Shown piece after piece: positions 4,716-54,865 of a stretch of DNA of 54,865 nucleotides. Source of the DNA: a virus. Taxonomy: Duplodnaviria; Caudoviricetes. Every line of letters starts with the position of its first letter. Position 1 is the first letter of the stretch. The translations under genes were made by a program, and so were the position numbers. The DNA lies in IMG/VR virus record IMGVR_UViG_3300046413_000898, positions 1 through 54,865 of that record; one strand, given 5' to 3'. The notes beneath the pieces are model-generated. The model was not told where the DNA came from and did no database searches. It saw nothing but the letters and a program-made list of their open reading frames with translations.

Positions 4716-4738
4716 GTCTCCTCCTTGGGTGCGGGTGA

Positions 4739-4764
4739 GGCCCGGCACCAGTCGGTGTCGGGCC
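4739..4764 (-). terminator. hairpin between candidate ncRNA and first early gene (copy A)
   Basis: GGCCCGGCACC/GGTGTCGGGCC stem; same position as the U-tailed terminator at 51039-51072. Confidence 0.5.
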
Positions 4765-4787
4765 GTCGTTGTGTCTGGTGTTCGTCC

Positions 4788-5065
4788 CACCTGGTCAGGC
4801 GAGCACGATCCGCTTGGCGCTCCGGGATCTACCGGGGCGACTTCCCTCACACCGTGCGGTTGCCTGCCGCAGCCTTATCGGGCTGTACCCACCCGCCATG
4901 CGGGTGCTCTGCGACGTGTAGGGGCTGGCCGGTCACCGGCCCCCGTAACGCTGTGGTGTGGGGTATATGCCTTCACCCTCCGCATCGCCTCGTGAGGCTC
5001 ACATGCGGTGGGCGCCCGGTGAATCTCCGGGTGTGTCGTGCGGATCGTGCTAGTCCGACCAGGTG
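4788..5065 (-). ncRNA. candidate ~280-nt structured non-coding RNA (copy A)
   Basis: Long terminal stem plus internal hairpins; compensatory changes relative to 51095-51371; no conserved ORF. Confidence 0.7.
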
Positions 5066-5072
5066 CGGCGTC

Positions 5073-5268: not shown

Positions 5269-5297
5269 AGCATGGCACACGGTGGAGCGCCAGGCAA
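5269..5297 (-). promoter_or_regulatory. putative early promoter TTGCCT-N17-CATGCT
   Basis: Spacing and -10 conserved in copy B (TTGCAC-N17-CATGCT, 51569-51597). Confidence 0.55.
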
Positions 5298-8176: not shown

Positions 8177-8189
8177 GTGATGACTCCTC

Positions 8190-8612
8190 TCATGAAGAAT
8201 CCCCCGTGTCAGGCGGGGGCTTGGTGTGTAGTGGGCGTGAGCGCATGTTCTGCAGGTGCTGCAGGATCCGCCACGACAACGACGGAACCGGTGGACGCGC
8301 GCCGTCCTGCACCCACTTCACCACCGGGACCATGTCATCGATCAGTTCGTCCCGGTCGCGCAGGGCTCCCTCTAGGGCCACGAGGCGGCGGGTGTGCTCC
8401 GAGGACTCTGCCCGCAGGCTCTTGAGCTCTTGCTCCTGGCGGGTGAGTGCGCTTTCGAGGGTTTTCTGCCACTCGGACTGCACCGTGGTGGAGCGGTCCA
8501 CGCGCCGCGCCCACCACACCAGAAAGGCCGTGATCAAGGCGCCACCGGTGGTTATGAGCGCGGCCAGCACAGTAGGTTCCAGCGGCATCATGGCGGGACT
8601 AATCACGGCCAC
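8190..8612 (-). CDS. membrane-anchored coiled-coil lysis-cassette protein (copy A)
   Basis: N-terminal TM plus coiled coil; near-identical to 54022-54459. Confidence 0.75.
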   Translation of the reverse strand: MAVISPAMMPLEPTVLAALITTGGALITAFLVWWARRVDRSTTVQSEWQKTLESALTRQEQELKSLRAESSEHTRRLVALEGALRDRDELIDDMVPVVKWVQDGARPPVPSLSWRILQHLQNMRSRPLHTKPPPDTGDSS

Positions 8613-30437: not shown

Positions 30438-30910
30438 CAGTCCGCGATCCTCCCGCGCCGCGCCTCGATCGACGTCACCGTCGCCCCCGCACCGGATCCG
30501 GCGACAGCGACATCGGGGACCTCGATCTCCGACTTGAGACGCAGCCGGTCCTCGACCGTCGCACCGAACTTCGCCACGCGGATCCGCACCTCAGCAGAGA
30601 ACTCCCACCGGCCCTTGGCCCACATGATGTGGTGCATCAGGGCCGTGTCGAGCAGGAAGTCCCAGTCCGGGTCCGACAGCATCCGGGACGCCTGCGGCGA
30701 ACGCCGCCAGTGGTCCCACCAGCGGCGGGTCTGCGGGTGCCAGTCCTCGCCCTCGGGCAAAACCTCGGCACCCTTCGGGAGATCGGGGCCGAAATACTTG
30801 GGGCCACGCACGATCTGGCGATGCGTGTTGTCCTGCGGCAGCTTCGTACGCTCAGGCTGATCCCGACCACGAGACCGGCTCTGCTTCGGTGCGGGCCCAT
30901 GTCCGGCCAT
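30437..30910 (-). CDS. terminase small subunit
   Basis: MAGHGPAPK, WHPQTRRWW and AKFGATVEDRLRL motifs. Confidence 0.85.
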   Translation of the reverse strand: MAGHGPAPKQSRSRGRDQPERTKLPQDNTHRQIVRGPKYFGPDLPKGAEVLPEGEDWHPQTRRWWDHWRRSPQASRMLSDPDWDFLLDTALMHHIMWAKGRWEFSAEVRIRVAKFGATVEDRLRLKSEIEVPDVAVAGSGAGATVTSIEARRGRIAD

Positions 30911-31401: not shown

Positions 31402-32241
31402 TCAAGCGGCCTCGGCCATGAGCTGGGCGCCCTTGAGCGAGTTGCAGATCGCGTGGGCGGTGCGGAGGTTCGTGAGGTCGTCCGTTCCGCCGACTGCTCG
31501 GGGGATGACGTGGTCGAGGGTTGGTGACCATGGGTCGTCGTACCGATAGGTCTTGCTCGTCGCCCCGCCGCATAGCCAGCAGGTGAAGTTGTCACGGGCA
31601 AGGACTGCGCCTCGATGCTTGAGCCACGGCCCCTTGTGGATCCGGCCTGGTAGGCGTCGTGCTTCTACCCGCTTCCTGCATCGAGTGGAGCAGTACACCT
31701 TCCCCCACGCGGGGTTGGTGGTGAAGGTGTGCCCGCAGTCCGCGCATGGGATGTAGGCGACTTGGCAAGTGGTGGCTCGGGCGAGGTCAGCTCGTGCGCG
31801 ATCGCGTGCCCTGCGGGCGCACGGGTCCGAGCAGTACCTTCGTTCCCGCCCGGCCCTGCCAACCCAGGCAATGTCGCACTCTGGGCAGGTGCCGTACTGG
31901 AGATCGCATTGGCCGCGTATCTTGCTGCTCTCGAGCGGGTCGATCCGGTGGGCAGCCTGTGCCATCTTCCCTGCCCGGGCGAGTTGCCCTGTGGCGCGGT
32001 TGTTGAGGTCTCGGCAGGTGCGGGAACAGAAGCGGGCGGAGGCGCGGGCCGTGAAGCTCTCGCCGCAGAGCTGGCAGGTCTTCTCGTGGTGGTGGCCGCG
32101 GATGACCTCGCCATTGGCTACCTGCTTGCGGTAGATCTCGCGGTTCCGTCTGCGCTTGCGTTCCTTGGCGCAGTCCGGTCCGCAGGTGAGCCGCTTGGCG
32201 GGCTGCCCGCATTCTGTGCAGGTGCGGGTAGGGTTGGGCAT
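31402..32241 (-). CDS. HNH endonuclease with four tandem Zn-finger modules
   Basis: Repeated CxxC...CxxxC; C-terminal RDNFTCWLC, TLDHVIP and AHAICN. Confidence 0.85.
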   Translation of the reverse strand: MPNPTRTCTECGQPAKRLTCGPDCAKERKRRRNREIYRKQVANGEVIRGHHHEKTCQLCGESFTARASARFCSRTCRDLNNRATGQLARAGKMAQAAHRIDPLESSKIRGQCDLQYGTCPECDIAWVGRAGRERRYCSDPCARRARDRARADLARATTCQVAYIPCADCGHTFTTNPAWGKVYCSTRCRKRVEARRLPGRIHKGPWLKHRGAVLARDNFTCWLCGGATSKTYRYDDPWSPTLDHVIPRAVGGTDDLTNLRTAHAICNSLKGAQLMAEAA

Positions 32242-32304
32242 GTGATCGTTCCTCCTGTGAACGGTTGCCATGCCCCCGGCTGTTGACGCAGCGCGGGGGT
32301 CTTC

Positions 32305-40895: not shown

Positions 40896-41108
40896 TCAGT
40901 CGCCCGTCGGCGATGTTGGCTGCTGGTGCCACTCGAAGCTGTCGTTGATCCAGGCGTCGATGTCGGCCTTGCGCCAGTACCATCGGCCGCCGATCTTGGC
41001 CTTCGGGGGCGCGGTGCCGCGCCAGATGCGTTGCCGGAGAGCGGCGGGCGTGATGCCGAGGTACTCGGCGGCCTGGTCGGTGTCCCAGAAATCGGGGGGG
41101 AGCTTCAT
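40896..41108 (-). CDS. AlpA/excisionase-like HTH protein
   Basis: DTDQAAEYLGIT..ALR....G.AP...KIGGRWYWRKADIDAWI. Confidence 0.85.
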   Translation of the reverse strand: MKLPPDFWDTDQAAEYLGITPAALRQRIWRGTAPPKAKIGGRWYWRKADIDAWINDSFEWHQQPTSPTGD

Positions 41109-42158: not shown

Positions 42159-42207
42159 TTGGTTCTCCTTGGTTGTGTTCTGCGAGCCGCTCGGATCAGG
42201 GGTTGGG

Positions 42208-42600
42208 TCAGGTGGGGGTGATGACGACGGTGACGCCGGGTTCCTGCCCGTCCGGCACGTATGCCTTCTGGGCGGTGAGCCGCACGACTCGGGAGTCCTC
42301 AGCGAGAACCCCGCCGGTCTGCAGTGAGTCCAGGATGGACCGGGTGAGCTTGTCGAGGTCGGGCTTGACGGCGGGCACCGGCCACCTGGGTCGCTTGGGG
42401 CGCGGCATCCAGAAGACGAGCTCGACGTGCACGGGCTGGTCGATTGGTGGGCCGTCGTGCTGCGCGGCGACCGAGGCGGTGACAGTGGCCCGCCACGCCT
42501 TGTGGCGCTTGTTCGCCTCGTAGAGCCGCCCGGTGCGGGTGACGGACTTCGAGCCCTGCGGCACCGGGGTGCCAACCGTCAGCGAGCGATGCAGGGTCAC
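42208..42600 (-). CDS. rusA: RusA-family resolvase (copy B)
   Basis: Same motifs as 21-413. Confidence 0.85.
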
Positions 42601-43536
42601 TCGCCCACCTCTTCATTCATATTGGTGTCCTCTACGAAGCCTTGCCCGATTAGCCGCTTTCTCGCCAGCTCCATATATTCCGGGTTCAACTCAATTCCAG
42701 CGAATCGTCTACCTAACAGCCCCGCCGACAGTGCCGTTGTTCCCGACCCCATAAAGGGATCGAGAACAATATCGCCCGGTTGGCTTGCGGTTAATATGCA
42801 CGGATCTACAAGAGTCGGCGGAAATGTTGCAAAATGACCGGACGCTTCACGGTACGCCCGCGTTTTCACATCCCACACAGTGCGCAGTCGCCTGTCGTTC
42901 GGTCCTTTTACTGCACCGACATCGTATAGGTACCTCTCCGACTTCGAGAGTAAGAACACATACTCGTGACTCCTCGTTGGTCGATCTCGAACACTTTCAG
43001 GCTGACAATTGGGCTTGTTCCAGACAATATCGGACCGCAGGTACCATCCGCGCTCCTGCAGTGCGAAGGCTAGGCGCCAGGGAACACCTATCAAATCTTT
43101 TGGCTTCAAACCTTCGGGAGTATTCGGGCGTTGACTCATGGCGCGAGCTGCATTCTTCTTGTCAGGCGCGCGCCAGGTTCGCCCTCCACTGGTGTAGGAG
43201 TCGCCTATATTTAACCAAAGCGTTCCATCATCCCTCAGCACCTGATATACGAGATCAAACACGTCTGCAAGCGCTTCGATGAAGGAGTAGACGCTGCTTT
43301 CGAGACCGATCTGCCCGTCAATCTTGTAATCCCGAAGCGACCAGTAAGGTGGAGACGTGACCACGGTTTGCGCCGAAGCCTTAGGCATCTCCGCAAGCAC
43401 TTCGTGAGCGTCTCCGAGAATTAGCGCTGACCGATTCATCACGGTCAGGTAGTCCGCCTCCGGCGGATGCTCGAAGGTGCCGAACCTCGGATAAGCGATG
43501 GAGGTGCCCACCGTCAGCGATCGATGCAGGGTCACT
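42568..43536. repeat. 34-bp direct repeats flanking the methyltransferase
   Basis: 42568-42601 vs 43503-43536, 32/34 identical. Confidence 0.85.
42597..43535 (-). CDS. DNA N4-C/N6-A methyltransferase, beta class (lower-GC insert)
   Basis: VTSPPY, HFATFP and VLDPFMGSGTT motifs; start at 43535 (GTG) or 43439. Confidence 0.9.
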   Translation of the reverse strand: MTLHRSLTVGTSIAYPRFGTFEHPPEADYLTVMNRSALILGDAHEVLAEMPKASAQTVVTSPPYWSLRDYKIDGQIGLESSVYSFIEALADVFDLVYQVLRDDGTLWLNIGDSYTSGGRTWRAPDKKNAARAMSQRPNTPEGLKPKDLIGVPWRLAFALQERGWYLRSDIVWNKPNCQPESVRDRPTRSHEYVFLLSKSERYLYDVGAVKGPNDRRLRTVWDVKTRAYREASGHFATFPPTLVDPCILTASQPGDIVLDPFMGSGTTALSAGLLGRRFAGIELNPEYMELARKRLIGQGFVEDTNMNEEVGE

Positions 43537-44173
43537 TGACGCGCTCCCCACGAGTCCACGGGCCGTCGAGAGGCTTCACATAGCCCCCGTCGCGGTCGAT
43601 CCACGGACGGACCCAGCCACCCTCCTGGGGGACCCACCGCCAGATGTAGTCGTCGATTTCTATCCACTCCCACTCGCGCAGGTGCATGTCGTCGTCGGGC
43701 CACTCGCCCACCTCGATGCGCTCCGGCACGTCCGGGGTCTCGTCGGGCCAGCGGGGCGGGTCCGACACGATGATCTGACGATCACCGGCACGGCGCAAGA
43801 CGTAGTCCCAGTGCCGCCAGTACCCGTCCATATCCCAGAGCAGGCCTCTCCCCTCCTGAAGATCAACGACCATACCCCGCCAGTCGTCGTCCCCCTCGAT
43901 GCGGATGCGCTGCCCGAGGATCGTGGGCTTGTCCGGCTGCACCACCGGGGGCGGGGTGATGATCTTGACGGGAGTGGAACGGGTGAACGCCCTCCTCTCC
44001 TCCCCGCGCTCGGTGACCAGCCTCGTGAAGGCGTAACCAGTGTCGATGCTTCCGAGCGTCAGCCGGTAGAGGATCCCCTCCGGCTCTCCGACCTCGATGA
44101 ACGCCCCCACGTGGGCGTCCGTCAGGTCACCCACCGTCAGGGTGTCACCCGCGCTGATCTTCTTCGTGCTCAT
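43532..44173 (-). CDS. hypothetical phage protein (paralog of 634-1269)
   Basis: Homology to copy A. Confidence 0.8.
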   Translation of the reverse strand: MSTKKISAGDTLTVGDLTDAHVGAFIEVGEPEGILYRLTLGSIDTGYAFTRLVTERGEERRAFTRSTPVKIITPPPVVQPDKPTILGQRIRIEGDDDWRGMVVDLQEGRGLLWDMDGYWRHWDYVLRRAGDRQIIVSDPPRWPDETPDVPERIEVGEWPDDDMHLREWEWIEIDDYIWRWVPQEGGWVRPWIDRDGGYVKPLDGPWTRGERVK

Positions 44174-44271
44174 TGCCCTGTCTCCTTCCTCGTGTGAAGC
44201 CCTCAGAATCGTTTCTGCGGGCCTAGAAACTGCTCACCCCCACACGGGGGCGTCCAACACCTGCCCGGCGC

Positions 44272-45537
44272 TCACGCAGCAACCTCCGACTGACCACGCC
44301 CATACAGGCGCGCCCGCACCGACGCAGGCACATCCTCATCATTCCAAGGCAGCGGGCCACTCGTCGTCAGCACATCCGGCCACGCCCGCTGATCACGATC
44401 ACCACGCCACCGCGACAACTCGATCACCCGCCGACGCTCCGACGACTCCTCCACGTCCAACCGCAGCCCAATACCGAACTCCGGCCAGCCAAGCAACGCC
44501 GATGAGCCACGAGGCGCGAGGTTCCTATCCCCCGCCGAGTTCGTGCCCTTCCCGGCGTGAGCCTCGATCAGCAGCGACAACCCCCGGTCCCGGATCGAAT
44601 CCAAGGCCGTGAGCACAGGCGCCGCTTCGTCATCCGTCGTGATGGCCCGCGACGTGATCTTGTACAGCGGGCCGATCGCCACCAGATCCGGTTCGATCTC
44701 GTCGATCTTCCGGTGCACCGCCCCGATGTGGGACTCCCTGGTCACGTCCAGCCGTGGCGAGCACACAACGTGCACCCGCTCTCTCGGGTCCCCCTGGGTG
44801 CCCGCCTTGAGCAGCGTCTCAACCATTGGGGACACGGCGCGCTTCCACTGCCGTTCACTGTTCTCCGCGTCGATCACCAACACCCGCAGAGGCGTGATGT
44901 CCGTCAGCGCGAAAGGGTGCAACCCGGCCGCGAGGCAAAGCACCATCTGCCGGATGAACATCGTTTTGCCCGTACCCTCCGCGCCGGTGAGCATCAGCCG
45001 GTCTCCGCGCTCCATGAGCCCATCGACCAACCAGTCATAGTTCGCCGGGACCTTGAGCAGATCCCCGAGCTCCTTCCCTTGGAGGACACCTTCTGTGGAA
45101 CCTGCCCGCAACTGCCGGAGGCCCTCGATCATCTGAGACAAGGCCTCCCCTGTCTCGGCCCCCTGCGCCTGGGCGATGACCTGCTGCATGGACCGACGCA
45201 CCCAGGACTCGTGAACGGTGTTCGCCAGGGCGGAGACGGTGTGCTCCGTCATGCCCCACACCGACGACGCCCACGAGTGCGGGTCCGCCGGCGAAAGTCC
45301 CCGGATGCCCTTGCGTTCGATCTCGATCCCCAGGGTCCCTGGGTCCAGCGGGGACTTCGCCGCCCACGCGGTGGTGACGAGGTCCCAGCATTGCTCCATG
45401 CGCGGGTCGTAGAACTCGCAGGAAGTGACCACGGCGGACGCGACCCTGAGCAGGTCGGGGTTGAAGGTGACCGCCCCGATCAGCTGCTGCTCGGCGGTGA
45501 AGCCGTTCACAGTGCGCTGCTCGAAAGGTTCATCCAT
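44272..45537 (-). CDS. DnaB-like/AAA replicative helicase
   Basis: N-terminal AEQQLIGA; GAEGTGKT Walker A; VLVIDAEN; PRGSS. Confidence 0.85.
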   Translation of the reverse strand: MDEPFEQRTVNGFTAEQQLIGAVTFNPDLLRVASAVVTSCEFYDPRMEQCWDLVTTAWAAKSPLDPGTLGIEIERKGIRGLSPADPHSWASSVWGMTEHTVSALANTVHESWVRRSMQQVIAQAQGAETGEALSQMIEGLRQLRAGSTEGVLQGKELGDLLKVPANYDWLVDGLMERGDRLMLTGAEGTGKTMFIRQMVLCLAAGLHPFALTDITPLRVLVIDAENSERQWKRAVSPMVETLLKAGTQGDPRERVHVVCSPRLDVTRESHIGAVHRKIDEIEPDLVAIGPLYKITSRAITTDDEAAPVLTALDSIRDRGLSLLIEAHAGKGTNSAGDRNLAPRGSSALLGWPEFGIGLRLDVEESSERRRVIELSRWRGDRDQRAWPDVLTTSGPLPWNDEDVPASVRARLYGRGQSEVAA

Positions 45538-46169
45538 GAGTCGCTCCTCCTTACCTGTGGTGGGCGGGGCTTGGCCTTGGTGAGCCAGTTGCGGAACCCG
45601 GCGTCCCAGTCCACGAGCCTGCGGTCGTGGGCTTGGGCGTGGTTGCGGAAGGTCTCGGCTTCGTGTGCGAGGTCGAGGTTCTTCTCGTTGGCCTTGGCCC
45701 TGTGCGTGTCGTTCGGCTCCCAGCTGTCCGGAAGGCGGCGCTCGCGCTGCTTCCGCGGAGCGGGAGCATTCATTGGTTCTAGTTCAGTGGTTCTAGTTAC
45801 TGCGACATCTGTGGGGAGAGGGTGGCGACATTCTTGGGGAGAGGGTGGCGTCACTGGTGACGCCACCCCTGGGACGTGGTGAACGTGGTACAGGTTCGAT
45901 GTCCGCTCCGTCGAACCCGGCTTCCACCGGGGCTCCACCGTCACAGCTTGGATCTTCTCGAGCTCATCGATGTACCGGTCCACGCTCTTCTCGCTCCGGC
46001 CCACCTTCGAGGCCAACAGCTTGCGCCCCGGCCACGCGGACCCCGTGTCGTTGTCCGCGAACTTGAGCATGACCATGTACAGGCGCAGCGCACCGTCCGA
46101 GATGTCTGACTCGAGCACCCAGTCCGGTACAGTGCGGAACTTCCCCGCGGTGAAGTCACTCATCGGCAT
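45507..46169 (-). CDS. replication initiator protein (wHTH plus C-terminal domain)
   Basis: ISDGALRLY, AWPGRK.LA, RLPDSWEP and DWDAGFRNWL; internal repeats; upstream of the helicase. Confidence 0.8.
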   Translation of the reverse strand: MPMSDFTAGKFRTVPDWVLESDISDGALRLYMVMLKFADNDTGSAWPGRKLLASKVGRSEKSVDRYIDELEKIQAVTVEPRWKPGSTERTSNLYHVHHVPGVASPVTPPSPQECRHPLPTDVAVTRTTELEPMNAPAPRKQRERRLPDSWEPNDTHRAKANEKNLDLAHEAETFRNHAQAHDRRLVDWDAGFRNWLTKAKPRPPQVRRSDSWMNLSSSAL

Positions 46170-46425
46170 CACCGTCAAGCATCCGGTCGAGGTCGGCGCG
46201 CTTGAAGCGCAGCCGCCCGGCCATTTCGTCGCGGGTCAACCCCAGGGTGTTGCCCTTGTCGAGGAAGTACATGAGGGTTCGGTACTCGGCCTCGATTCGT
46301 TCGCGGCTGACGTCCAAGAACTCGAGGACGAGCCGTTGTCTGCTATCCTGTTCCATGTTGTCTCCTTTCTTCGCGGTGAAGGCCCCTAGCCCTCTTGGAT
46401 AGGGGCCTTCGCTGTTGGTGCTCAT
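46156..46425 (-). CDS. small HTH-like hypothetical protein
   Basis: GLTRDEMAGRLRF; start at 46425 or 46356. Confidence 0.5.
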   Translation of the reverse strand: MSTNSEGPYPRGLGAFTAKKGDNMEQDSRQRLVLEFLDVSRERIEAEYRTLMYFLDKGNTLGLTRDEMAGRLRFKRADLDRMLDGDADE

Positions 46426-46565
46426 CCCCGCTTGGCAACCAGTTCCGCGACAAGCAGCTGCATCGTCTGATCCTCGGTGAACCCGGTTTCCACCAGGGCG
46501 AGGAAGTACTCGCGCAAGCTGGTGGCGGCCCTCATCGGTTCGCTCAGGCCATCGTTGTTGTCCAT
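46422..46565 (-). CDS. small hypothetical protein (missing from the ORF track)
   Basis: MDNNDGL...LREYFLALVETGFTEDQTMQLL; AGGAGG RBS. Confidence 0.6.
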   Translation of the reverse strand: MDNNDGLSEPMRAATSLREYFLALVETGFTEDQTMQLLVAELVAKRG

Positions 46566-46575
46566 GTCAGTCCTC

Positions 46576-46986
46576 CTATGAGTTGTGCCCCGTGGTGGGG
46601 CATTCGTTGTCTGCGCCGTCCGGCAGATACCGTGACAGCGCCTCGTCCGTAAGCCTCAGCCGCGACCCATCATCCGAAAGCAGGAACCACGCCTGCTCCG
46701 GCTCGGACCAGCACGCGACCTCCGCCGGCTGGCGCACCCCATTCCGGGAGACCTTCCAGCCCCGCAGTCGGCCGATCACCGCGAAGACCGCATCGGACTC
46801 GAGCTGCTCGTTGTGGCGCTTGCACATGGTCACCAGGTTCGACAGCCCGTGGCCGCGCTTCGACCCGCCCATGCCACGGTTCGCTCGGTGCTGCGGGGTG
46901 AGGTCGTACTCGGTGCCGCAGGCCACGCACTTGTAGCCGTCACGCTCCTGCATTCGCTTCACAGAACCGGTCGGTGTTGCGCTCAT
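46576..46986 (-). CDS. HNH endonuclease-like protein
   Basis: ERDGYKCVAC, QHRANRGMGG and NLVTMCKRHN. Confidence 0.8.
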   Translation of the reverse strand: MSATPTGSVKRMQERDGYKCVACGTEYDLTPQHRANRGMGGSKRGHGLSNLVTMCKRHNEQLESDAVFAVIGRLRGWKVSRNGVRQPAEVACWSEPEQAWFLLSDDGSRLRLTDEALSRYLPDGADNECPTTGHNS

Positions 46987-47342
46987 GCTCCCGGCCCCCT
47001 GTCTGCGTACAGCTGGGCGGCCATGCGCTCGTCCACATGCTCCGAGCGCAACGCGTCACTCTTGGCGCGGCACCAGTGGAGCTTCTGCTTGAACGACTCC
47101 GCCTCAGCCTCCGCCGCCACCTTGTGCAACCGGATACCCATGACCGCGTCGTCCGCATCAGCCAGCGTCTCCGCCGCCGCCTGCGACAGCTTCGTGTCAT
47201 CGTCACGGGCCCGCACGATGAACTTCGCCCGGGCCCGCCTGTACTCGTTCTCCGCCCGCGCCGCCTCGTTCGTGTGATCCCGGTACGTCAGGATCAGCTT
47301 GTCCCAGGCGAGCAGGTGCTCGTTGATGTCACTCTGTGGCAT
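46983..47342 (-). CDS. helical hypothetical protein
   Basis: Coupled ORF. Confidence 0.65.
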   Translation of the reverse strand: MPQSDINEHLLAWDKLILTYRDHTNEAARAENEYRRARAKFIVRARDDDTKLSQAAAETLADADDAVMGIRLHKVAAEAEAESFKQKLHWCRAKSDALRSEHVDERMAAQLYADRGPGA

Positions 47343-47997
47343 CGCTGTCGTTCTCCGGCGGGTTCTCGAGCTCGGGCACCTCCGGCTCCGGCGCCTTAGC
47401 CCGCTGCACCGTGCGCCGCTTCTTCGGCTCCGGCGCCGGCTCAGGGGCGTTCGACAGCTCGATGTCCTCCACCGACGACAACCCCATCAGCGCATCCGGG
47501 GCCACCAGCTTCGCGGCCTCCGCCTGGCACTTCGCCGTCAGCATCCCGATCGGGTCTGTCTTGTACTTCTGGTTCGACGTGTACCCCGCCCGGTCAGCCC
47601 GTGCCATGGTCCACTCGACCTTCTGCCACACCTGCGAGCCACGGCGCCGGCACTGGAACACCACCGCCTGCTCCGTCGCGGACTCACGGGTGATCTCGTG
47701 CCCAGCAGACACCGCCAGCGCCATCATCGTGGAAGCGTACAGCGCCGGCGTACCGTGGACCACGTACACCGACCGCAGGGAAGCAATCGGGTCCAGACCC
47801 AGCGTGTTCCCGTACAGCATCGCCGTCGCCGCCTCAGCAGGCTTGCCCTGGAAGTGCTTCGGGGCGAACGCCGTCTGGCACAGCTTCTGCGCCAGCGTGT
47901 ACCCAGCGTCCAGCTCTGCCGCGTAGTACGCCAACGACTTGACCCCCGGCGCCTCAGCGCGGGGGTCGTAGGCCTCGTTCTCTGCGAGCTCGCTCAT
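47329..47997 (-). CDS. RecT-like ssDNA annealing protein (copy B)
   Basis: Homolog of 1343-2356 with a shorter C-terminus. Confidence 0.75.
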   Translation of the reverse strand: MSELAENEAYDPRAEAPGVKSLAYYAAELDAGYTLAQKLCQTAFAPKHFQGKPAEAATAMLYGNTLGLDPIASLRSVYVVHGTPALYASTMMALAVSAGHEITRESATEQAVVFQCRRRGSQVWQKVEWTMARADRAGYTSNQKYKTDPIGMLTAKCQAEAAKLVAPDALMGLSSVEDIELSNAPEPAPEPKKRRTVQRAKAPEPEVPELENPPENDSDATE

Positions 47998-48770
47998 GCT
48001 CTCTCCTTCGTCTCGGGCCACACCGGGTCACCCAGGTAGTTCTTGCGCTTGTCCACCGTCTTGGCGATGTACGCGGCCGCCAAGAAGTCTTGGAACTGGC
48101 TGTCGATCTGCTTGCGTGATGTCGCCAGCGGGTGCAGCCGCACCCCCGAAACGGTGATGTGCGCGACGTAGGTCGCCACCACTTCCGGCATGGGGTGCTC
48201 GGTGTCTGGGTCGTCGTCCTCCACCCAGAACTCGGCGCGGGCGTACGCGGCGCACTGCAACGCAGTGTCGCCGTACACGCGGTTGGAGGTCTTCCAGTCG
48301 ATCAGGACCGGCAGCCCGTCATGGAGCTTCGGGGAAGTGCCGATGAAGTCCACCCGGCCCGCGTACCAGTGCTCCCGGTTTGCCAGCGACTTCTCCACCA
48401 CCACGGGCTGCAGGTTCAGGTCCTCGATGAAGTCCACCAGTCCCTCCACCTCCGGGCGGTGCGCCTCTGGGATCTCCACCTCATCGCCAGCAAGGTACCG
48501 CTGCCCCAGGTCGTGGATCTCCGTGCCGCGCATAGCCGCCTTGTCGCGCACCAGGTCGTGCACCCGCGACAAGGTGGGCACGAGCTCCCCTGTGGAGCGC
48601 AGTCGGTCCACCTCCTCCGGGTTCTTGTCCACCCATTCCGCCACGGTGCGAGCCGCCCACGGAACCAGCGCCGGCTTCGGGATGCCACCACCGATCAGGG
48701 TGGTCGCTCCCTTCACCGGGCGCTTGTCCAGCCGGTAGCGGTGGGCTTTCTCGCTGAACGTCAGACTCAT
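47994..48770 (-). CDS. PD-(D/E)XK exonuclease (copy B)
   Basis: RGTEIH, YAGRVD, IDWKTS and LQCAAY. Confidence 0.8.
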   Translation of the reverse strand: MSLTFSEKAHRYRLDKRPVKGATTLIGGGIPKPALVPWAARTVAEWVDKNPEEVDRLRSTGELVPTLSRVHDLVRDKAAMRGTEIHDLGQRYLAGDEVEIPEAHRPEVEGLVDFIEDLNLQPVVVEKSLANREHWYAGRVDFIGTSPKLHDGLPVLIDWKTSNRVYGDTALQCAAYARAEFWVEDDDPDTEHPMPEVVATYVAHITVSGVRLHPLATSRKQIDSQFQDFLAAAYIAKTVDKRKNYLGDPVWPETKERA

Positions 48771-49141
48771 CGCTGCTCCTTCGTTTCGATGTAGTGCTGG
48801 ATGTCCTGGATCAGCTGCTCGTGGTCGTCCGGGGTCATGTCGTCCCACACCTCCGTGCGCAGCATGTCCTTCCAGTCCTCCCACCGGATCGTGTGGTACG
48901 GGGCGTCGTGGCACCCGAAGGCGTGGTCCTTCTTCCCGAGGTCACCCATGCGGTCCGTGAACGCTGCCCACAGGTGCCACGCCCACCGCTCCGCCGCATC
49001 CCGTGTCGAGCGCACGGGCTTCACGTCGTGGCTGATGCGGTCCGGGTCCGTCATCCGCGTCCGATCGAACTGGATCGGGGAGGGGTCGGGCCGCTCCGGT
49101 TCATCCCACATGCGCGCCCACTTCCCATCTGGTGCAATCAC
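48767..49141 (-). CDS. hypothetical phage protein
   Basis: Coupled ORF with RBS. Confidence 0.6.
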   Translation of the reverse strand: MIAPDGKWARMWDEPERPDPSPIQFDRTRMTDPDRISHDVKPVRSTRDAAERWAWHLWAAFTDRMGDLGKKDHAFGCHDAPYHTIRWEDWKDMLRTEVWDDMTPDDHEQLIQDIQHYIETKEQR

Positions 49142-49401
49142 TGGTCATCCTCCTTCGTTGTTGCGGGGCGGTGGATTTCGTGGCCCTCGCCGCGCTTATG
49201 GACGCTCCACCCGTCGGGCCACGGCAGGTTGCGGAGCTCGAGGCCCCACCCGTCGTCGGTGACGGATACGACATCTACCTCGCAAAGCATGGCGCCCCCG
49301 TCGTCGTCCACGACGATCAACTGCGCTCCGGGCTTGGGTGGGGTTGACCCGCTGACTCTCACAAGATCATCGATGAATTCGAATACCAGGGGACGCGTCA
49401 T
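49138..49401 (-). CDS. hypothetical phage protein
   Basis: Coupled ORF. Confidence 0.6.
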   Translation of the reverse strand: MTRPLVFEFIDDLVRVSGSTPPKPGAQLIVVDDDGGAMLCEVDVVSVTDDGWGLELRNLPWPDGWSVHKRGEGHEIHRPATTKEDDQ

Positions 49402-49685
49402 CGGTCTTCCTCCAGATCATAGAGCCCGCGGTAGGTGCCGATGTAGCCACCCTTCCGCGAAGCCTTGGACGACTTCACCGTCCGGTCCGTTTTCTCGATC
49501 CAACCGCGGTGCACTGCCTTGAGCAGCGCGCCCTGCCACGCCGACCCAGCCGGCGGCGGGCCGCACACCTCTTCGAGGTCCTCGACGGTGAACTCCGAGA
49601 ACCTGTCTGCCGTCTCCTGGATCGCATCCTCTGCTGCGGCGTGCCATTCCGCCGCGGTCGGCTCGAGGACCGCCGGGCCGCTCAC
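49398..49685 (-). CDS. hypothetical protein (paralog of 4148-4501)
   Basis: Homology to copy A. Confidence 0.7.
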   Translation of the reverse strand: MSGPAVLEPTAAEWHAAAEDAIQETADRFSEFTVEDLEEVCGPPPAGSAWQGALLKAVHRGWIEKTDRTVKSSKASRKGGYIGTYRGLYDLEEDR

Positions 49686-49849
49686 GACCGCACCCGGTGC
49701 CACAGCACCCGCACCACCGTGCACGCCGCCGCCACCGCGAAGAACCCCACAGCGACCAGCACCGCGGTCTGCCACCACCCCAAGAGGGCCATGCCGCCGC
49801 TGACTCCGAGCGCCGCGCCACCGTGCGGGATCGCACTGACTTGATTCAC
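49682..49849 (-). CDS. small membrane protein
   Basis: Hydrophobic; C-terminus resembles 4498-4608; start uncertain. Confidence 0.5.
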   Translation of the reverse strand: MNQVSAIPHGGAALGVSGGMALLGWWQTAVLVAVGFFAVAAACTVVRVLWHRVRS

Positions 49850-49881
49850 ATCTGAGCCGTACACCTGTTGTCTCCTTTGTC

Positions 49882-50916
49882 TCAGCTGGCGTGATGCCAG
49901 GTCATGTCTGAACGTCGAACGAACGTGAGCAGCGCCTTCACGTGGGCGAACTGCAACGCGGCCGCGTAGGCCATCTCCGGGACCAGTGCGGCGGCCACCA
50001 GGCGGTGACGCCACCCCATACCCCAGACCGTCACGACCCGCTCCACGATGAACACCGCCAAGATCGCCAGCCCCCACCAGGACGGCTGCAGGCCGTAGAT
50101 CGGGGTGAGTACCGCGGTGAGGACCAGGAACGACCAGAACGCGAGGATGGACACCAGCAGCAGCGCCTGCTGCCGCCAGTACACCGCCGTCACACGATTG
50201 AGGCCGTGCCGGGTCACAACGTCCAGCGCCCCACGCGACCAACGAGCTCGCTGCTTGATCAGGTCCGGGATCGTGTCCATCGTGTCCGTCAGCACCCCAC
50301 ACCCAGCCGGCGAGGTCAGGCGCGCGCCGGTCGCCTTGAGGCGCACCGTGAGGTCGAAGTCCTCCGTGATCGCATCCTCGTCGTAGTACGAGCCGTAGCG
50401 GGCACGCACAGCCTCGAGGGCCGACATGCGGATCAGCGCCGCCGTGCCCGACAGAACATGCGTGTGGTCGCTCATCGTGTTCTGAACGGTGTAGCGCTCC
50501 CACTCCCTCGCAGTGCACCCACGCAACCAGCCCGTGTCGTCGTCCGCGAGGAACACCGCGCCAGCCGCATCCGCACGGCCACGCGGCCCAGGCCCCAGTG
50601 CATCGAGTGCGTTCTGCACCCACACCGGGGACATCACCGTGTCAGCGTCCATCGGCAGCACCATGTCCCACGGGGACGGGTCAGCGTAGGCGATCGCCCG
50701 ATTGAGAGCTCCTGCCTTGCGTCCGGTGATCTTCCCGAAGTCCACGACCTCGATCCGCGGGTCACGCACTCGCGCCGCCGACGCCACAGTGATGTCGTCC
50801 TGCGCGTTGTTCACCGCAACAATCAGCCTGTCAGGGGACCGCGTCTGGTCCAGCAGGGACCGCAGCGTCCGGTCGATGTCCGGCTCCGTCACGGCCGGCA
50901 CGATAGCGATGATCAC
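49882..50916 (-). CDS. GT2 processive glycosyltransferase (IcaA/PgaC/HAS-like)
   Basis: KAGALN, DADT, TED and QRARW motifs plus C-terminal TM helices. Confidence 0.85.
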   Translation of the reverse strand: MIIAIVPAVTEPDIDRTLRSLLDQTRSPDRLIVAVNNAQDDITVASAARVRDPRIEVVDFGKITGRKAGALNRAIAYADPSPWDMVLPMDADTVMSPVWVQNALDALGPGPRGRADAAGAVFLADDDTGWLRGCTAREWERYTVQNTMSDHTHVLSGTAALIRMSALEAVRARYGSYYDEDAITEDFDLTVRLKATGARLTSPAGCGVLTDTMDTIPDLIKQRARWSRGALDVVTRHGLNRVTAVYWRQQALLLVSILAFWSFLVLTAVLTPIYGLQPSWWGLAILAVFIVERVVTVWGMGWRHRLVAAALVPEMAYAAALQFAHVKALLTFVRRSDMTWHHAS

Positions 50917-51020
50917 GACTCGTCACCCCTCCAGAACAGGGCCACCAGTCCGATGACCGCGATGATCCCGATGGTCAGCAGGAAGTCGGGGTGCATCCCC
51001 CACTCGAGCCACTCAGGCAT
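50913..51020 (-). CDS. 35-aa single-TM peptide (MPEWLEWGMHPDFLLTIGIIAVIGLVALFWRGDES)
   Basis: Homolog of 4605-4715; strong RBS. Confidence 0.75.
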   Translation of the reverse strand: MPEWLEWGMHPDFLLTIGIIAVIGLVALFWRGDES

Positions 51021-51038
51021 GTCTCCTCCTTGGGTACG

Positions 51039-51072
51039 AAAAAAGCCCCGGCTCCTCGAAGGGCGCCGGGAC
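51039..51072 (-). terminator. intrinsic terminator directly 3' of the candidate ncRNA
   Basis: GUCCCGGCGCCC-UUCG-AGGAGCCGGGGC-UUUUUU on the minus strand. Confidence 0.75.
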
Positions 51073-51094
51073 GGGTTCTGCGTGTTGTCTCTAC

Positions 51095-51371
51095 CACCTG
51101 ACCAGTTCAAGCAGCACCGATTCGCGCCCAGGAACCTGCCTGGGCGGCTTCCCTCACGCTTCACGGTTGCCTGCCGCAGCCTTATCGGACTGTGTCCACC
51201 CGCCATACGGGTGCTCTGCGACGTGTGGGCACCGACCGGTCACCGGCCCCGTAACGCTCTGCGTGGGTTATATTTCTTCATCCGCCGTGTCGCCTCGTAA
51301 GGCTCACACACAGTGGATGTCCGGTGAAACTCCGGATCGTGTTGCTCGGTGCTGCTTGAACCAGCCAGGTG
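51095..51371 (-). ncRNA. candidate ~280-nt structured non-coding RNA (copy B)
   Basis: 16-bp perfect closing helix 51105-51120/51346-51361; covariation with 4788-5065. Confidence 0.7.
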
Positions 51372-51378
51372 ATTAGGC

Positions 51379-51540
51379 TCAGCTGAGCCAGGGTGCAAGG
51401 TCGCTCTCGGGGATGACCCAGCGTGCGCCTCGTCCGGTCTTTCGCGCCCCGGGGAGGGACTTGTCGTGGATCATCCGCATGATCGTGGTCCGGGAGACTC
51501 GCAGGAGCTCTGCTGCCTCGTTGCTGGTGTAGTGCTTCAT
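51379..51540 (-). CDS. excisionase/AlpA-like HTH protein (53 aa, missing from the ORF track)
   Basis: MKHYTSNEAAELLRVSRTTIMRMIHDKSLPGARKTGRGARWVIPESDLAPWLS. Confidence 0.85.
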   Translation of the reverse strand: MKHYTSNEAAELLRVSRTTIMRMIHDKSLPGARKTGRGARWVIPESDLAPWLS

Positions 51541-51568
51541 CGTCACCTCCTTGGTTCGTTGTGGTCAC

Positions 51569-51663
51569 AGCATGGCACACGGTGACGCACGGTGCAACGC
51601 ACTGCCCGCCCATGGTTCGTAATGGTGCGTAATGATTGACAGTGGTGCGCCGTGGTGTACGGT
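51569..51663. promoter_or_regulatory. divergent promoters (minus TTGCAC-N17-CATGCT; plus TTGACA-N16-TACGGT) with 10-bp phased repeats
   Basis: Sigma-A-like hexamers conserved in position with 5269-5363. Confidence 0.55.
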
Positions 51664-51700
51664 GATGTCACCAACAACCGAACCACCCAAGGAGCACACC

Positions 51701-51940
51701 ATGCGACGCAACGAGGTTGCATCCGTTATCCAGTACGAACGCCACGACTGCTCCCGGCCGAAGGGCATCAAGACCCCTGGCGTCATCTGGCAGTGCGCCG
51801 ACTGCGGCGTCATCTGGGAGACCATCCGCCGGGATGCTGGTGGCATGGTGGCCAACGTCGGGAACTATGGCCCGGTAGGCGACGAGGTCGTCTACGACCC
51901 ACACCGGGAGCGCGTTCTGGCCAACCTCCGCGGACACTGA
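51701..51940 (+). CDS. small Zn-ribbon hypothetical protein
   Basis: AAGGAG RBS; HDC...WQCADCG. Confidence 0.65.
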   Translation: MRRNEVASVIQYERHDCSRPKGIKTPGVIWQCADCGVIWETIRRDAGGMVANVGNYGPVGDEVVYDPHRERVLANLRGH

Positions 51941-51952
51941 CCCCAGACACGC

Positions 51953-51997
51953 AAAAAAGGCCCCCGGTCCCACCCATCAGGGTGAGGCCGGGGGCCT
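51953..51997. terminator. bidirectional terminator
   Basis: AAAAAAGGCCCCCGG...CCGGGGGCCT between convergent genes. Confidence 0.8.
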
Positions 51998-52054
51998 AGT
52001 CATTCAGCGGCGGCGGATCTTGTTCGCCAGCCATTTGGCGACGTGCCGAACCAT

Positions 52055-52501
52055 TTAGATCACCTGCTTTGCGAGTCGAGCGACAGGGTCATCGTCCAGG
52101 TCATCTTCCTCGGTGGTGGGTTCGGTGACCGGCTGCTCACCAGTAGCGGGTGCATACTGCGCCGGCCCCGCGGCCTGCGCGGCCGCCAGGCGGGAGACGA
52201 TCTGGTCAACCTGGTCCACGGCCTCCTGCGCGTAGAGCGCGTCGCCCTGGTCCGTGGGCGTGTTCTTGCCGCCCTGCCGGGCACCCAGGCCCGACGTTGC
52301 GGTGGCGATCGGCATACCCAGCCAGCTAGCCAGCAGCGCGATCTTCACCTCGTTGGGGAGATCCGCGAGCAGGACGATGAGAAGGACGATGACTCCGGTG
52401 GCGACGGAGGCGATCGAGCCCCACATCAGTGCGCCGGACTGCGCCCCTCGCGTCGTCGCGCCCACGGTCTTGCCAGTTGTGGTGGTAGCTGCCTCAGCCA
52501 T
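52055..52501 (-). CDS. holin-like membrane protein (copy B)
   Basis: Two TM segments; C-terminal DDPVARLAKQV shared with 6663-7112. Confidence 0.65.
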   Translation of the reverse strand: MAEAATTTTGKTVGATTRGAQSGALMWGSIASVATGVIVLLIVLLADLPNEVKIALLASWLGMPIATATSGLGARQGGKNTPTDQGDALYAQEAVDQVDQIVSRLAAAQAAGPAQYAPATGEQPVTEPTTEEDDLDDDPVARLAKQVI

Positions 52502-54008
52502 TGGTGGTCTCCTTCTCAGTGTGGGCCAGGATCTTGGAGACCCCGGCGGCGATCACGTTCAGGGAGTGCTCCACGCGCTCCTGGTGGTCTTCGACCGCGA
52601 CCCGGTGCTCCTCCTGACGGACCCGCTCGTGGCGTGCCCAGCCCTCGTTGTCGAGCGCGGTCATGTCCCCCGTGGCATCGCCCTTGGGGGGAATGATGAT
52701 CTTGGAAAGGTCGATGCTGGCGATGGTTGCCTCCTTGGTCGTGGTCTGCTTGGTAGCAACATGCTTGCCCTTCGCCGCGGGCTTTGCCTTGGTCGTCGGG
52801 CTCGGCCACATGGTGCCGTTCAAGGTGCGGTTCAGGTCGAGGTCCCCGGCGTAACCCTTGAACCTGCCGCGCCGACTGTACTGCCACGCGGCGATGTTCC
52901 ACCCAGCCACGCTCGGCGCACCGGCGAAGCTGGTGGCGTAGGCGGAGAACGGCTTATCAGACCCGTAGGCCGCGATCCACACCGGGACCTTCTTGTCCAC
53001 GGGGCGCCACCCGGATGCCGTGAGGAAGTCGCGGCGAGTGTAGAGCACGAGGTGCACACCGGGCGCCTTAGCGCGCAGGCGGGCCAGGAAGTCGGACGCC
53101 CACCGGGCGTAGGCCCCGGCCTTGTCCTCCTCCCAGTCGAGGACGAGGCCAGAGAACCCCTTCTGCGACAGGTAGGGGCGGGCTACCTTGAGGAAGTAGT
53201 CCACCTCAGCGTCGGAGCTGTTGGAGAGAGGGCGGGCGAAGTGGTACAGCATCCACGGGATGCCCTTAGCCTGCGCGGCCTTGACATGCCCTGCGGTTTT
53301 CTTGCCCGACCACCCCACGCCCTCGGTGGCCTTGATGATCGCCGCGTAGGTTGGCACGTCCCGGATCACGGTCGTCGGCTGGTAGTCGGAGACGTCGATC
53401 CAGTTCTTCGGCCAGCTCGTGGCCGTGGTCGCCGCGGCGGTTCCGGCCTTGGACGCCGACCCCGTGCCCTTAGTCGCCGTCCCGGTCCATGACGTGTACG
53501 TGTTCGGGGCGTAGGGGATCGTCAGCCACGGGGCAGGGTCGATCGAACCGTACGTTCCGTTGGACCAGTTCGGCCGCCCAGGGACAAGCCCAAGGTGCAG
53601 GTGCGGTCCGGTGGACGTACCCGTGTTGCCCGTCTTGCCGATGATGTCACCACGCTTGACGCGCTTGCCCACAGGGGCCTCGTCATTGGACGACAGGTGC
53701 GCGAAGATCCAGTGGGACCCGGCGTCGTTGCGGAGCACGGTCATGATGCCGCCGCCGCCCCGCCTGTTATTCACAGCGGGCTTGAGCTGGAACCACCTGG
53801 GGACCCAATCGTCCGGGCCACCAGGCAAATTCCACGCCCAGTCGGCGTGGACGATGACGCCGTCATCGGGCGCGACAACCGGGGTGCCGGTTGGGGCCGC
53901 GAAGTCGATCGCGCCGTGGGCGGCTCCACCCGAGAACCGGGTGCTGTACTTGCCGTTGAAGGGTTGGGTGACCCGGTACATTGCGGGCACCGGTCGCATT
54001 GAGGTCAC
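52494..54008 (-). CDS. endolysin, M23 peptidase plus GH25 muramidase
   Basis: HGAIDF, FAHLS, GNTGTSTGPHLH; IDVSDYQ, IKATEG, YHFA, LVLDWEE and WQYS. Confidence 0.9.
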   Translation of the reverse strand: MTSMRPVPAMYRVTQPFNGKYSTRFSGGAAHGAIDFAAPTGTPVVAPDDGVIVHADWAWNLPGGPDDWVPRWFQLKPAVNNRRGGGGIMTVLRNDAGSHWIFAHLSSNDEAPVGKRVKRGDIIGKTGNTGTSTGPHLHLGLVPGRPNWSNGTYGSIDPAPWLTIPYAPNTYTSWTGTATKGTGSASKAGTAAATTATSWPKNWIDVSDYQPTTVIRDVPTYAAIIKATEGVGWSGKKTAGHVKAAQAKGIPWMLYHFARPLSNSSDAEVDYFLKVARPYLSQKGFSGLVLDWEEDKAGAYARWASDFLARLRAKAPGVHLVLYTRRDFLTASGWRPVDKKVPVWIAAYGSDKPFSAYATSFAGAPSVAGWNIAAWQYSRRGRFKGYAGDLDLNRTLNGTMWPSPTTKAKPAAKGKHVATKQTTTKEATIASIDLSKIIIPPKGDATGDMTALDNEGWARHERVRQEEHRVAVEDHQERVEHSLNVIAAGVSKILAHTEKETTNG

Positions 54009-54021
54009 GATGTGCCTCCTC

Positions 54022-54459
54022 TCATTCAGACGACCCCGTGTCAGGCGGGGGCTTGGTGGTGGGTAGTGGGTCCGTGGATGGGCGTGAGCGCATGTTCTGC
54101 AGGTGCTGCAGGATCCGCCACGACAGCGACGGGATTGGGGGGCGGGCGCCGTTCTGCACCCACACCACGACTGGGACCATGTCATCGATCAGTTCGTCCC
54201 GGTCGCGCAGGGCTCCCTCTAGGGCCACGAGGCGGCGGGTGTGCTGCGCGGACTCCGCTCGTAGGCTCTTGAGCTCATCCTCCTGGCGGGTGAGTGCGCT
54301 TTCGAGGGTTTTCTGCCACTCCGACTGCACGGAGGTGGAGCGGTCTACGCGCCGCGCCCACCACACCAGAAAGGCAGTGATCACGGCGCCACCTGTGGTG
54401 ATGATCGCCGCCAGCACCGTAGGGTTCAGCGGCATCATGGCGGGATTAATCACGGCCAC
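54022..54459 (-). CDS. membrane-anchored coiled-coil lysis-cassette protein (copy B)
   Basis: Near-identical to 8190-8612. Confidence 0.75.
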   Translation of the reverse strand: MAVINPAMMPLNPTVLAAIITTGGAVITAFLVWWARRVDRSTSVQSEWQKTLESALTRQEDELKSLRAESAQHTRRLVALEGALRDRDELIDDMVPVVVWVQNGARPPIPSLSWRILQHLQNMRSRPSTDPLPTTKPPPDTGSSE

Positions 54460-54865
54460 CCCCTGCCCGGCACCTCGGTGCCTGGTCAAACGCCCCAGCA
54501 TGAGTCGCCAGGGCCAGCAATGTCATCACCGCCCGGGCCCAGTAGTTCGCCGTAGAGCCCCACCCCGAACTCACATGCGGCGGACCACCAGCACCACCAC
54601 CACTACCGGCAGGGAACCCCAACAGCCCAGAGGACTCCCACAGCAGCCACGGCCCCAGGAACAGTGCGCCGATCAGCAGAGGGATGATCACCAGCACCGA
54701 GCCGATCACGATCAGCTGCTGCCGTGCCGCCTCACCACGCACCACAGACAACACCACACCCAACGCCGCCAGAACAGCGGCGACCATCCAGACACCGGCG
54801 ATCACATGCGGAGTCATCCACCCCGCCACCCACGACACACCATCAACCCGCGCCGGCGACGGACG
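54446..54865 (-). CDS. multi-TM membrane protein, truncated by the window end (copy B)
   Basis: Near-identical to 8599-9159. Confidence 0.75.
   Translation of the reverse strand, partial: RPSPARVDGVSWVAGWMTPHVIAGVWMVAAVLAALGVVLSVVRGEAARQQLIVIGSVLVIIPLLIGALFLGPWLLWESSGLLGFPAGSGGGAGGPPHVSSGWGSTANYWARAVMTLLALATHAGAFDQAPRCRAGGGRD

Follow-up and report, generated by a model that had tools for sequence, protein, structure and literature searches.

A structured RNA at the head of the early genes of two related marine phages and its possible role in transcriptional read-through

Gene order at the locus

The IMG/VR virus record IMGVR_UViG_3300046413_000898 (54,865 bp, linear class, CheckV completeness 80%, G+C 67%) was analyzed over its full length, which we call the window, and contains a short regulatory module in two copies, at 50913-51700 (copy B) and 4605-5400 (copy A). 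The two copies align end to end and share one order on the minus strand, namely a promoter-like site, a gene for a small DNA-binding protein of the HTH_17 family, a noncoding RNA, a CA-rich linker, a hairpin, a membrane peptide and then the early genes. An initial annotation of this DNA had described a five-part order common to both copies, and this is borne out by the full-length alignment and by the matching coordinates of genes, RNA and hairpin. Mean column identity is 85% over 934 columns in the MAFFT alignment, flanks included, and 77.7% over 764 positions by blastn. By either measure the module is more conserved than its neighbors, the exonuclease (57%) and RecT (48%), both compared as proteins. 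The minus strand carries nearly all genes of the window, and the module heads a one-strand gene train of ~44 kb. Its parts are as follows, with lengths in nucleotides (nt) or amino acids (aa).

51569..51597, minus strand, copy B: promoter-like site of the HTH-RNA transcript, with -35 TTGCAC (51597..51592), a 17-nt spacer and -10 CATGCT (51574..51569), from the alignment
5297..5269, minus strand, copy A: counterpart of this site, with TTGCCT, 17 nt and CATGCT
51379..51540, minus strand, copy B: HTH_17 (Xis/MerR-type) gene, 53 aa (Pfam PF12728, E 3.3e-15)
5073-5240, minus strand, copy A: HTH_17 twin, 55 aa, 85% identical (Pfam PF12728, E 3.9e-12)
51093..51373, minus strand, copy B: structured RNA, 281 nt (RNAalifold, pair counts, strand test)
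4786..5067, minus strand, copy A: structured RNA, 282 nt (RNAalifold, pair counts)
51073..51092, minus strand, copy B: CA-rich, G-poor linker, 20 nt, predicted to be unpaired (alignment, folds)
4768-4785, minus strand, copy A: linker, 18 nt (alignment, folds)
51038..51072, minus strand, copy B: intrinsic terminator with a GC-rich hairpin of 10 pairs (51072..51045) and then CUUUUUU (-20.1 kcal/mol)
4737..4767, minus strand, copy A: hairpin with no U-tract (-28.1 kcal/mol for the folded 74-nt stretch), unrelated in sequence to the copy B hairpin
50913..51020, minus strand, copy B: peptide of 35 aa with one hydrophobic span, ATG start
4605-4715, minus strand, copy A: peptide of 36 aa, 69% identical to its copy B twin

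Two early regions are present in the window, along with two lysis cassettes that differ from each other, and blastn finds collinear blocks at 1-5403 and 42188-51704 (66-92% identity) and a 90% identical match between 8181-9018 and 54013-54865. These findings indicate that the record joins at least two related phages, either in tandem or as a chimeric assembly, and is not one genome, and copies A and B therefore belong to different phages. The large terminase of the window is closest to actinobacteriophage terminases, with Streptomyces phage Samy as the top match (51%), and its matches (2,041 records) are almost all phages of Mycobacterium, Gordonia, Streptomyces and their kin. Public sequencing runs containing the stretch under study are mostly seawater metagenomes, some of which share 26-86% of its sequence words, and none of the runs listed is an RNA run. 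We take the source to be two related marine actinobacterial phages of an uncultured host.

The structured RNA

The RNA starts 6-7 nt past the stop codon of the HTH_17 gene. In its predicted fold a closing helix of 25 pairs, here named P1, surrounds a core of ~225 nt, which is made up of multiple hairpins and is most conserved at a central three-way junction. Both copies are far more stable than shuffled sequences by minimum free energy (MFE), with z of -6.87 for copy B and -5.83 for copy A and 0/100 shuffles as stable. The two-copy consensus computed by RNAalifold has 86 pairs in 11 helices; 17 of these pairs have changed on both sides between the copies, 8 have changed on one side, and none is broken. 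A pair count found 172 of 172 cells paired, with shuffles averaging 8.4 +/- 2.1 double changes and none of 500 reaching 17, and only 0-2 double changes were left when the partners were slid by 1-3 columns. These counts are flattering in that the structure was derived from the same two sequences on which it was tested. Ten of the compensatory pairs sit in one continuous helix, which is hard to explain otherwise. P1 is only 56% identical in sequence (28/50 columns) yet completely paired, and identity over the paired columns of the core is 84%. Invariant single-stranded pieces of the junction are AGC, AUG, ACA, GAUAAGG and AGGCAAC.

Strand comparison gave 86 pairs and -135.9 kcal/mol for the minus strand against 81 pairs and -121.95 kcal/mol for the plus strand, and the G-U pairs of P1 form on the minus strand only. 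This places the RNA in the same direction as the genes. The alignment of the two copies shows no conserved promoter for the RNA alone inside the end of the HTH_17 gene.

Several other identities were considered for this stretch and rejected. Single-base gaps between the copies break any common reading frame, which excludes a coding region, and a miniature inverted-repeat transposable element or other DNA inverted repeat does not fit arms that covary for pairing and contain G-U pairs working on one strand. Neither reverse transcriptase (RVT_1) nor the TnpB zinc ribbon (PF07282) was found in the window, which rules out a retron msr-msd or a TnpB-IscB omega RNA. We saw by eye no CUCUUU-type motif that would point to a boxA/nut site.

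The RNA could not be assigned to a catalogued family. Rfam 15 gave no matches for the whole window at gathering thresholds, and at E up to 10 it gave five weak matches on 50900-51720, the best of which (NsiR1, E 0.1) covers only the terminator hairpin. ARAGORN detected no tRNA or tmRNA. A covariance model made from both RNA copies (CM R1) scores copy A at 346.7 bits, but copy A helped to build this model. By its pairing pattern the structured RNA is real, and it is a new family with good structural support and a very narrow known distribution.

Promoters, linker and terminator

The promoter-like site of the HTH-RNA transcript was inferred from the alignment, in which the 21 nt surrounding its -10 are identical in copies A and B; a consensus promoter scan does not list it. 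The same scan does not list a second promoter-like site, which faces the other way and precedes a divergent gene. The features of this divergent slot in copy B are given below.

51612..51631, no strand assigned: a pair of 10-bp repeats in tandem, ATGGTTCGTA / ATGGTGCGTA, between the divergent promoters (repeat search)
51636..51663, plus strand: promoter-like site of the divergent gene, with TTGACA, 16 nt and TACGGT (read from the sequence)
51701..51940, plus strand: divergent gene for a 79-aa protein that has an H-x-C ... C-x-x-C pattern and belongs to no known family (Pfam, PHROG)
51957-51998, minus strand: very strong terminator, -37.9 kcal/mol followed by U5 (custom scan)

Copy A has TTGCGC ... 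TACTGT at the place of the divergent promoter and a counterpart of the tandem repeats at 5318-5337. The repeats contain CGTAATG and, as we infer from their position between the promoters, are a plausible operator for the HTH_17 protein. The recognition-helix region is identical in the two aligned HTH_17 proteins, which correspond to PHROG 10045 and 66 ('HTH DNA binding protein' and 'excisionase and transcriptional regulator'). Pfam gives only a Zn-ribbon hint for the 79-aa protein (E 0.087), and the slot of copy A is filled by a 96-aa protein, a 180-aa winged-helix protein (HTH_36, E 1.6e-5) and a membrane protein. No classical repressor was found by Pfam in the slot of either copy, although the HTH_36 protein of copy A may be a regulator. 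A six-frame search of the whole window for Phage_integrase, serine Recombinase, HTH_3 (XRE/CI-type) and ParB_N was also negative. The initial annotation, which saw no XRE/CI repressor or integrase in the divergent slot, is borne out on this point. The very strong terminator, whose loop is too large for the standard scan, separates the end of the lysis operon from the divergent gene. It closes the preceding lysis operon and thereby insulates the early promoter region.

On the other side of the RNA, the linker is conserved between the copies in length and composition and not in sequence. The U-tailed terminator that had been noticed ~20 nt 3' of the copy B RNA and ahead of the early genes is indeed present at 51038-51072 and is listed by the standard terminator scan; at the matching place in copy A there is a hairpin (4767..4737), as had been stated, but it has no U-tract. 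Shuffled sequences folded at least as well as the hairpin in 18 of 200 cases for copy B and in 3 of 200 for copy A. A custom scan of the minus strand over 54.9 kb detected nine sites with a hairpin and a U-tail, of which two reach -20 kcal/mol or lower (51038-51072 and 51957-51998).

From the copy B U-tract to the next Shine-Dalgarno (SD) sequence there are only ~9 nt, which leaves no room there for a promoter, and neither the alignment nor the consensus scan shows a promoter-like site common to both copies between terminator and SD. The ribosome binding site (RBS) of the peptide, CCCAAGGAGGAGACATG, is identical in the two aligned copies, and the first 16 residues of the peptide are nearly identical. 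In copy B, the stop codon of the peptide overlaps the GTG start of the next gene. Copy A encodes a second hydrophobic peptide of 36 aa (4498-4608, minus strand) at the place where copy B has a glycosyltransferase, and its GTG overlaps the stop codon of the first peptide.

Relatives and distribution

A third variant of the module, ~94% identical, was found in another seawater study when contigs of four seawater runs were aligned to the window. Its contig of 1,350 nt covers 50913-52113 with 70 differences and 6 gaps, and it joins position 49681 to 50913, skipping 1231 bp with the glycosyltransferase. In this variant the module is kept and its neighbor is optional. The nearest relative found outside the lineage (L019), with an exonuclease of 50% identity, has an HTH_17 gene directly before small genes, including one for a 40-aa membrane peptide, with no noncoding gap between them. 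The RNA is therefore a lineage-specific addition. The initial annotation had proposed the order in related phages as a check, and the outcome is mixed: the ~94% variant keeps the stretch, and the more distant relative has the HTH_17 gene and the membrane peptide without the RNA.

Wider searches of phage and plasmid records, IMG/VR, genomes and metagenomes yielded no homolog. No match was obtained by blastn for the 788-nt region against phages or for 516 nt against plasmids. Motif scans gave only two loci in IMG/VR, both chance matches of 18-21 nt, and none in the Genome Taxonomy Database (GTDB) genomes, and CM R1 had no hit in any of five whole viral records. A 20-mer scan of metagenomes of the Joint Genome Institute (JGI) returned five loci that share just a 20-25-mer, four of them copies of a repeat element and one a likely coding stretch. 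The four copies lie on near-identical metagenome contigs (L014, L015, L017 and L018) and belong to an unrelated element of long inverted repeats with a common 20-mer. As a homolog of the RNA this repeat was rejected, since it reaches only ~16 bits with CM R1, which we take as chance.

The HTH_17 protein is rare as well, with only four clusters of 85-96% identity among 5.8 billion proteins. Its search in IMG/VR returned six loci with 40-65% identity over part of the query, none of which has the RNA, and one of these (L009) is an ordinary xis-int pair. Against GTDB genomes the HTH alignment found one irrelevant Bacteroidales locus, and against IMG/VR the peptide alignment found one unrelated low-GC phage.

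Neighboring genes

The first long gene behind the copy B module and the endolysins of the two lysis cassettes are listed here.

49882..50916, minus strand: family-2 glycosyltransferase (Pfam)
7109-8176: Amidase_2 endolysin of one lysis cassette (Pfam)
52494-54185: GH25+M23 endolysin of the second lysis cassette (Pfam)

The glycosyltransferase is an optional gene of the moron type, missing from the related contig of the other study. Early genes of both copies include exonuclease, RecT and RusA, and copy B also has an O-like initiator, a DnaB-type helicase and methyltransferases. Deep inside the early region of phage B there is a second HTH_17 gene (70 aa, 40896-41108, minus strand). A 149-aa protein with hydrophobic stretches is encoded at 6663-7112 on the minus strand, and its ATG overlaps the stop codon of the endolysin, which makes an open reading frame on the plus strand at 6597-6950 doubtful.

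An HNH endonuclease adjoins the small terminase (31402-32271 and 30437-30910, minus strand). We take this adjacency to be the usual neighborhood of a cos site, in which case the physical ends would lie near 31.3 kb and not at the junction of lysis and early genes. With this pair at ~30.4-32.3 kb by PHROG, a reading of the module as a cos site was dropped.

Proposed mechanism

We tentatively propose that the RNA is a cis-acting leader which lets RNA polymerase pass the terminator. One promoter between the lysis and early genes would drive the HTH_17 gene and then the RNA; co-transcription of the two is likely, as the RNA starts almost immediately behind the stop codon and has no conserved promoter of its own. 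The fold would be complete 18-20 nt before the hairpin, which directly precedes the RBS of the first early gene and where transcription would be expected to terminate. Acting in cis, the RNA would then cause the polymerase that transcribed it to read through into the genes for recombination and replication, and possibly beyond them. The HTH_17 protein would probably regulate the divergent promoters via the conserved repeats.

Behind the hairpin there is neither room for a promoter nor a promoter-like site common to both copies, and any polymerase that reaches the early genes must therefore have made the RNA first and must get past the hairpin, which in copy B is the only strong terminator inside the early/late gene train. 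On this anatomy antitermination is the best available proposal for the mechanism. The initial annotation had suggested an RNA-based antitermination switch, which stands at the level of anatomy, position and analogy; the immunity function that it offered as an alternative is unsupported.

Comparison with known systems

The initial annotation had drawn its comparison with P4, P1 and the put RNA of HK022. Better analogies than P4 and P1, not named there, are the large cis-acting antiterminator RNAs conAn2 and canT. In conAn, a small protein gene is followed by an RNA element of 260-600 bp at the head of a 37-kb operon, and conAn2 of plasmid pLS20 is described as active in cis only, with inverted repeats of 20 bp on either side of a 238-bp core that contains stem-loops (PMC8191782). 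The module described here also has a large noncoding element (281/282 nt) directly behind a small protein gene at the head of a long one-strand operon, and its 25-pair helix around ~225 nt compares well with the 20-bp repeats around the 238-bp core. The MFE fold of pLS20 3080-3470 has the same outline, with a closing helix of ~25 pairs from ~12 nt past the stop codon and a multi-hairpin core (z -4.91). By this analogy, the HTH_17 protein and the RNA might work as partners, like ConAn1 and conAn2.

There are also differences from conAn. A terminator is found downstream in both systems, 20 nt after the RNA here and two genes later in conAn. The protein is a 53-aa HTH_17 protein here and not a relative of ConAn1 (PF17362): Pfam searches at E up to 10 returned only HTH_17 and other HTH families and no PF17362 for both HTH copies, but pLS20 ConAn1 itself had no Pfam match in this search, which makes the comparison a weak one. 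CM R1 run over pLS20 2000-5000 with filters off gave nothing on conAn2 above 3.1 bits. This says little, because proven conAn2 elements are reported to be mutually just 30-40% identical (PMC8191782). Finally, the present element belongs to a phage of Actinobacteria-like kin and conAn2 to a Firmicutes plasmid.

The canT element of Tn916 is another large RNA downstream of a main promoter and small regulatory genes. It is described as cloned at 452 nt, active in fragments of at least 341 nt, and a cis-acting processive antiterminator in one orientation only, which acts on the first and on later terminators (PMC11658703). It is an RNA-only system from a Firmicutes conjugative transposon, and our comparison is with its description and not with its sequence. 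Several downstream terminators are documented in that account, whereas one strong terminator is seen here.

Among phages, the put RNAs of HK022 are early-leader RNAs that act on the transcribing polymerase without a phage protein. As described, put is ~70 nt with two stem-loops and binds the zinc-binding domain of beta-prime, putR lies ~270 nt downstream of PR, and for putL a functional distance of ~20 nt is reported to separate the RNA from the place where it acts (PMC9378689). Going by these values, the RNA here would start at a similar distance, ~190 nt from the inferred start site, and its linker of 18-20 nt resembles the putL distance. With 281 nt and 11 helices it is much larger than put and has no evident homology to it, and HK022 is a temperate coliphage with a repressor. 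Overall, the module has the geometry of lambdoid nutR/putR and is closer still to the large cis-acting antiterminator RNAs. We read its relation to conAn, canT and put as resemblance, not membership.

To our knowledge, the RNA-based antiterminators described so far are few (put, EAR, conAn2 and canT), and none of these is from an actinobacterial phage. A literature search on antitermination in mycobacteriophages and Streptomyces phages returned nothing relevant by title or abstract among the matches listed. It is possible, although doubtful, that the 281-nt leader represents a new class of large polymerase-modifying RNA, perhaps in two parts with the HTH_17 protein, which carries transcription of a lytic genome past terminators.

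Points against read-through and alternative functions

A number of observations weigh against a cis-acting read-through RNA. The copy A hairpin has no U-tract and so may not terminate. The rest of the gene train has about as many terminator-like sites as chance predicts (10 observed and 8.3 expected, then 4 and 4.5, and 8 and 4.8), so that the need for a processive device is not obvious. The protein beside the RNA is of the HTH_17 and not the ConAn1 type, and the covariance model does not match conAn2 of pLS20. Inspection of the folds by eye found no alternative pairing between the RNA and an arm of the terminator that is kept in both copies. The relative L019 has the HTH gene and membrane peptide without the RNA, and so an early operon of this kind can work without it. 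The fold itself rests on two full sequences, which were also the source of the tested structure. Last, small-RNA genes that stand alone normally have just this layout, a compact RNA with a terminator right after it.

This last point leads to the main rival proposal, somewhat less likely than read-through, in which the product is a stable trans-acting RNA of ~230-280 nt, released by its own terminator or by RNase III cutting of P1, with the early genes expressed by leak. Its target, of host or phage, could be polymerase or another protein that it sequesters, a host defense for which it serves as a decoy, or a host function in takeover. The fold would suit such an RNA, being compact, closed by a long and nearly perfect helix and strongly conserved at its junction, as would the terminator directly 3' of it in copy B. 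Helices of at least 20 bp are RNase III substrates, and in P1 the sequence is free to vary and the pairing never is, as expected of a structural or processing helix. There is, however, no likeness to catalogued RNAs including 6S, Y RNA, tRNA-like and tmRNA, a complementarity scan of the window found no antisense target common to both copies, and the RNA lacks a conserved promoter of its own at the end of the HTH gene. Even under this alternative the early genes have no room for a separate promoter, and the terminator still must be passed.

It is improbable that the stretch is a passive attenuator or insulator, a Rho-resistant spacer with a constitutive partial terminator that sets the ratio of HTH to early products and is not a switch. 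Such a role would agree with the missing U-tract in copy A, with hairpin folds that are unremarkable for their composition by the shuffle counts given above, and with the relative that manages without the RNA. A spacer, however, would not be expected to keep 17 compensatory pairs and invariant junction strands while neighboring proteins have diverged to 48-57% identity. An even smaller chance goes to a riboswitch-like leader, in which binding of a metabolite or host factor at the junction would decide between termination and read-through. The conserved junction upstream of a terminator does look like an aptamer, but no riboswitch family matched even at E up to 10, a P1 of 25 pairs is too stable for a switching helix, and the folds of the two copies share no mutually exclusive terminator and antiterminator pairings.

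An immunity element like P4 CI or P1 c4, in which an antisense RNA shuts off early transcripts of its own or of a superinfecting phage, had been put forward in the initial annotation and is very unlikely. P4 and P1 are temperate elements, and their antisense RNAs are short, about four times smaller than the 281-nt RNA, and have matching target repeats. The likeness is in position, since they too are small regulatory-RNA loci in an early leader beside a small DNA-binding gene and a membrane or killer gene, and the RNA here lies behind an Xis-type gene in an early leader. There is also a perfect complementarity of 15 nt between the copy B RNA (51348..51334, minus strand) and the early mRNA of the other phage (4584-4598, minus strand). 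It pairs the junction after P1 with the second membrane-peptide gene of the other phage, has no counterpart in the copy B operon, and may be chance or a cross-phage antisense contact. In contrast, no complementarity of at least 11 nt to the own leader is kept in both copies, so that conserved targets are lacking, and the RNA had no match in Rfam, whose coverage of P4 CI and P1 c4 was not checked. With no integrase, CI-type HTH or ParB in the window, there are no visible lysogeny genes, and this makes immunity of the P4/P1 kind unlikely.

The least chance of all is given to an RNA primer or origin, like ColE1 RNA II or the RNA origins of integrase-less mycobacteriophages with parABS. Integrase-less actinophages are described as using a noncoding RNA region of ~400-500 bp for prophage replication, and the RNAs known from that account adjoin parA and not the head of an early operon (PMC7157519). 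The six-frame search gave no ParB, there is no parABS neighborhood, and the phage has its own O-like initiator and DnaB-type helicase.

Significance

The evidence for the fold is good enough that the RNA deserves a bench test, whether as a cis-acting antiterminator or as a stable trans-acting RNA. Its very narrow distribution and the uncultured host limit the significance that can be given to it. Should it prove to be trans-acting, it would be a new phage noncoding RNA with a well-defined fold. If it is a true antiterminator, it would provide a compact, portable read-through element for high-GC hosts, and phages of Actinobacteria-like hosts would have in it their first RNA-based antitermination device, which would extend the conAn/canT principle from Firmicutes conjugative elements to phages. 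An RNA that gates the early operon of a phage with neither integrase nor repressor would suggest that large leader RNAs heading long operons are a general solution in mobile elements.

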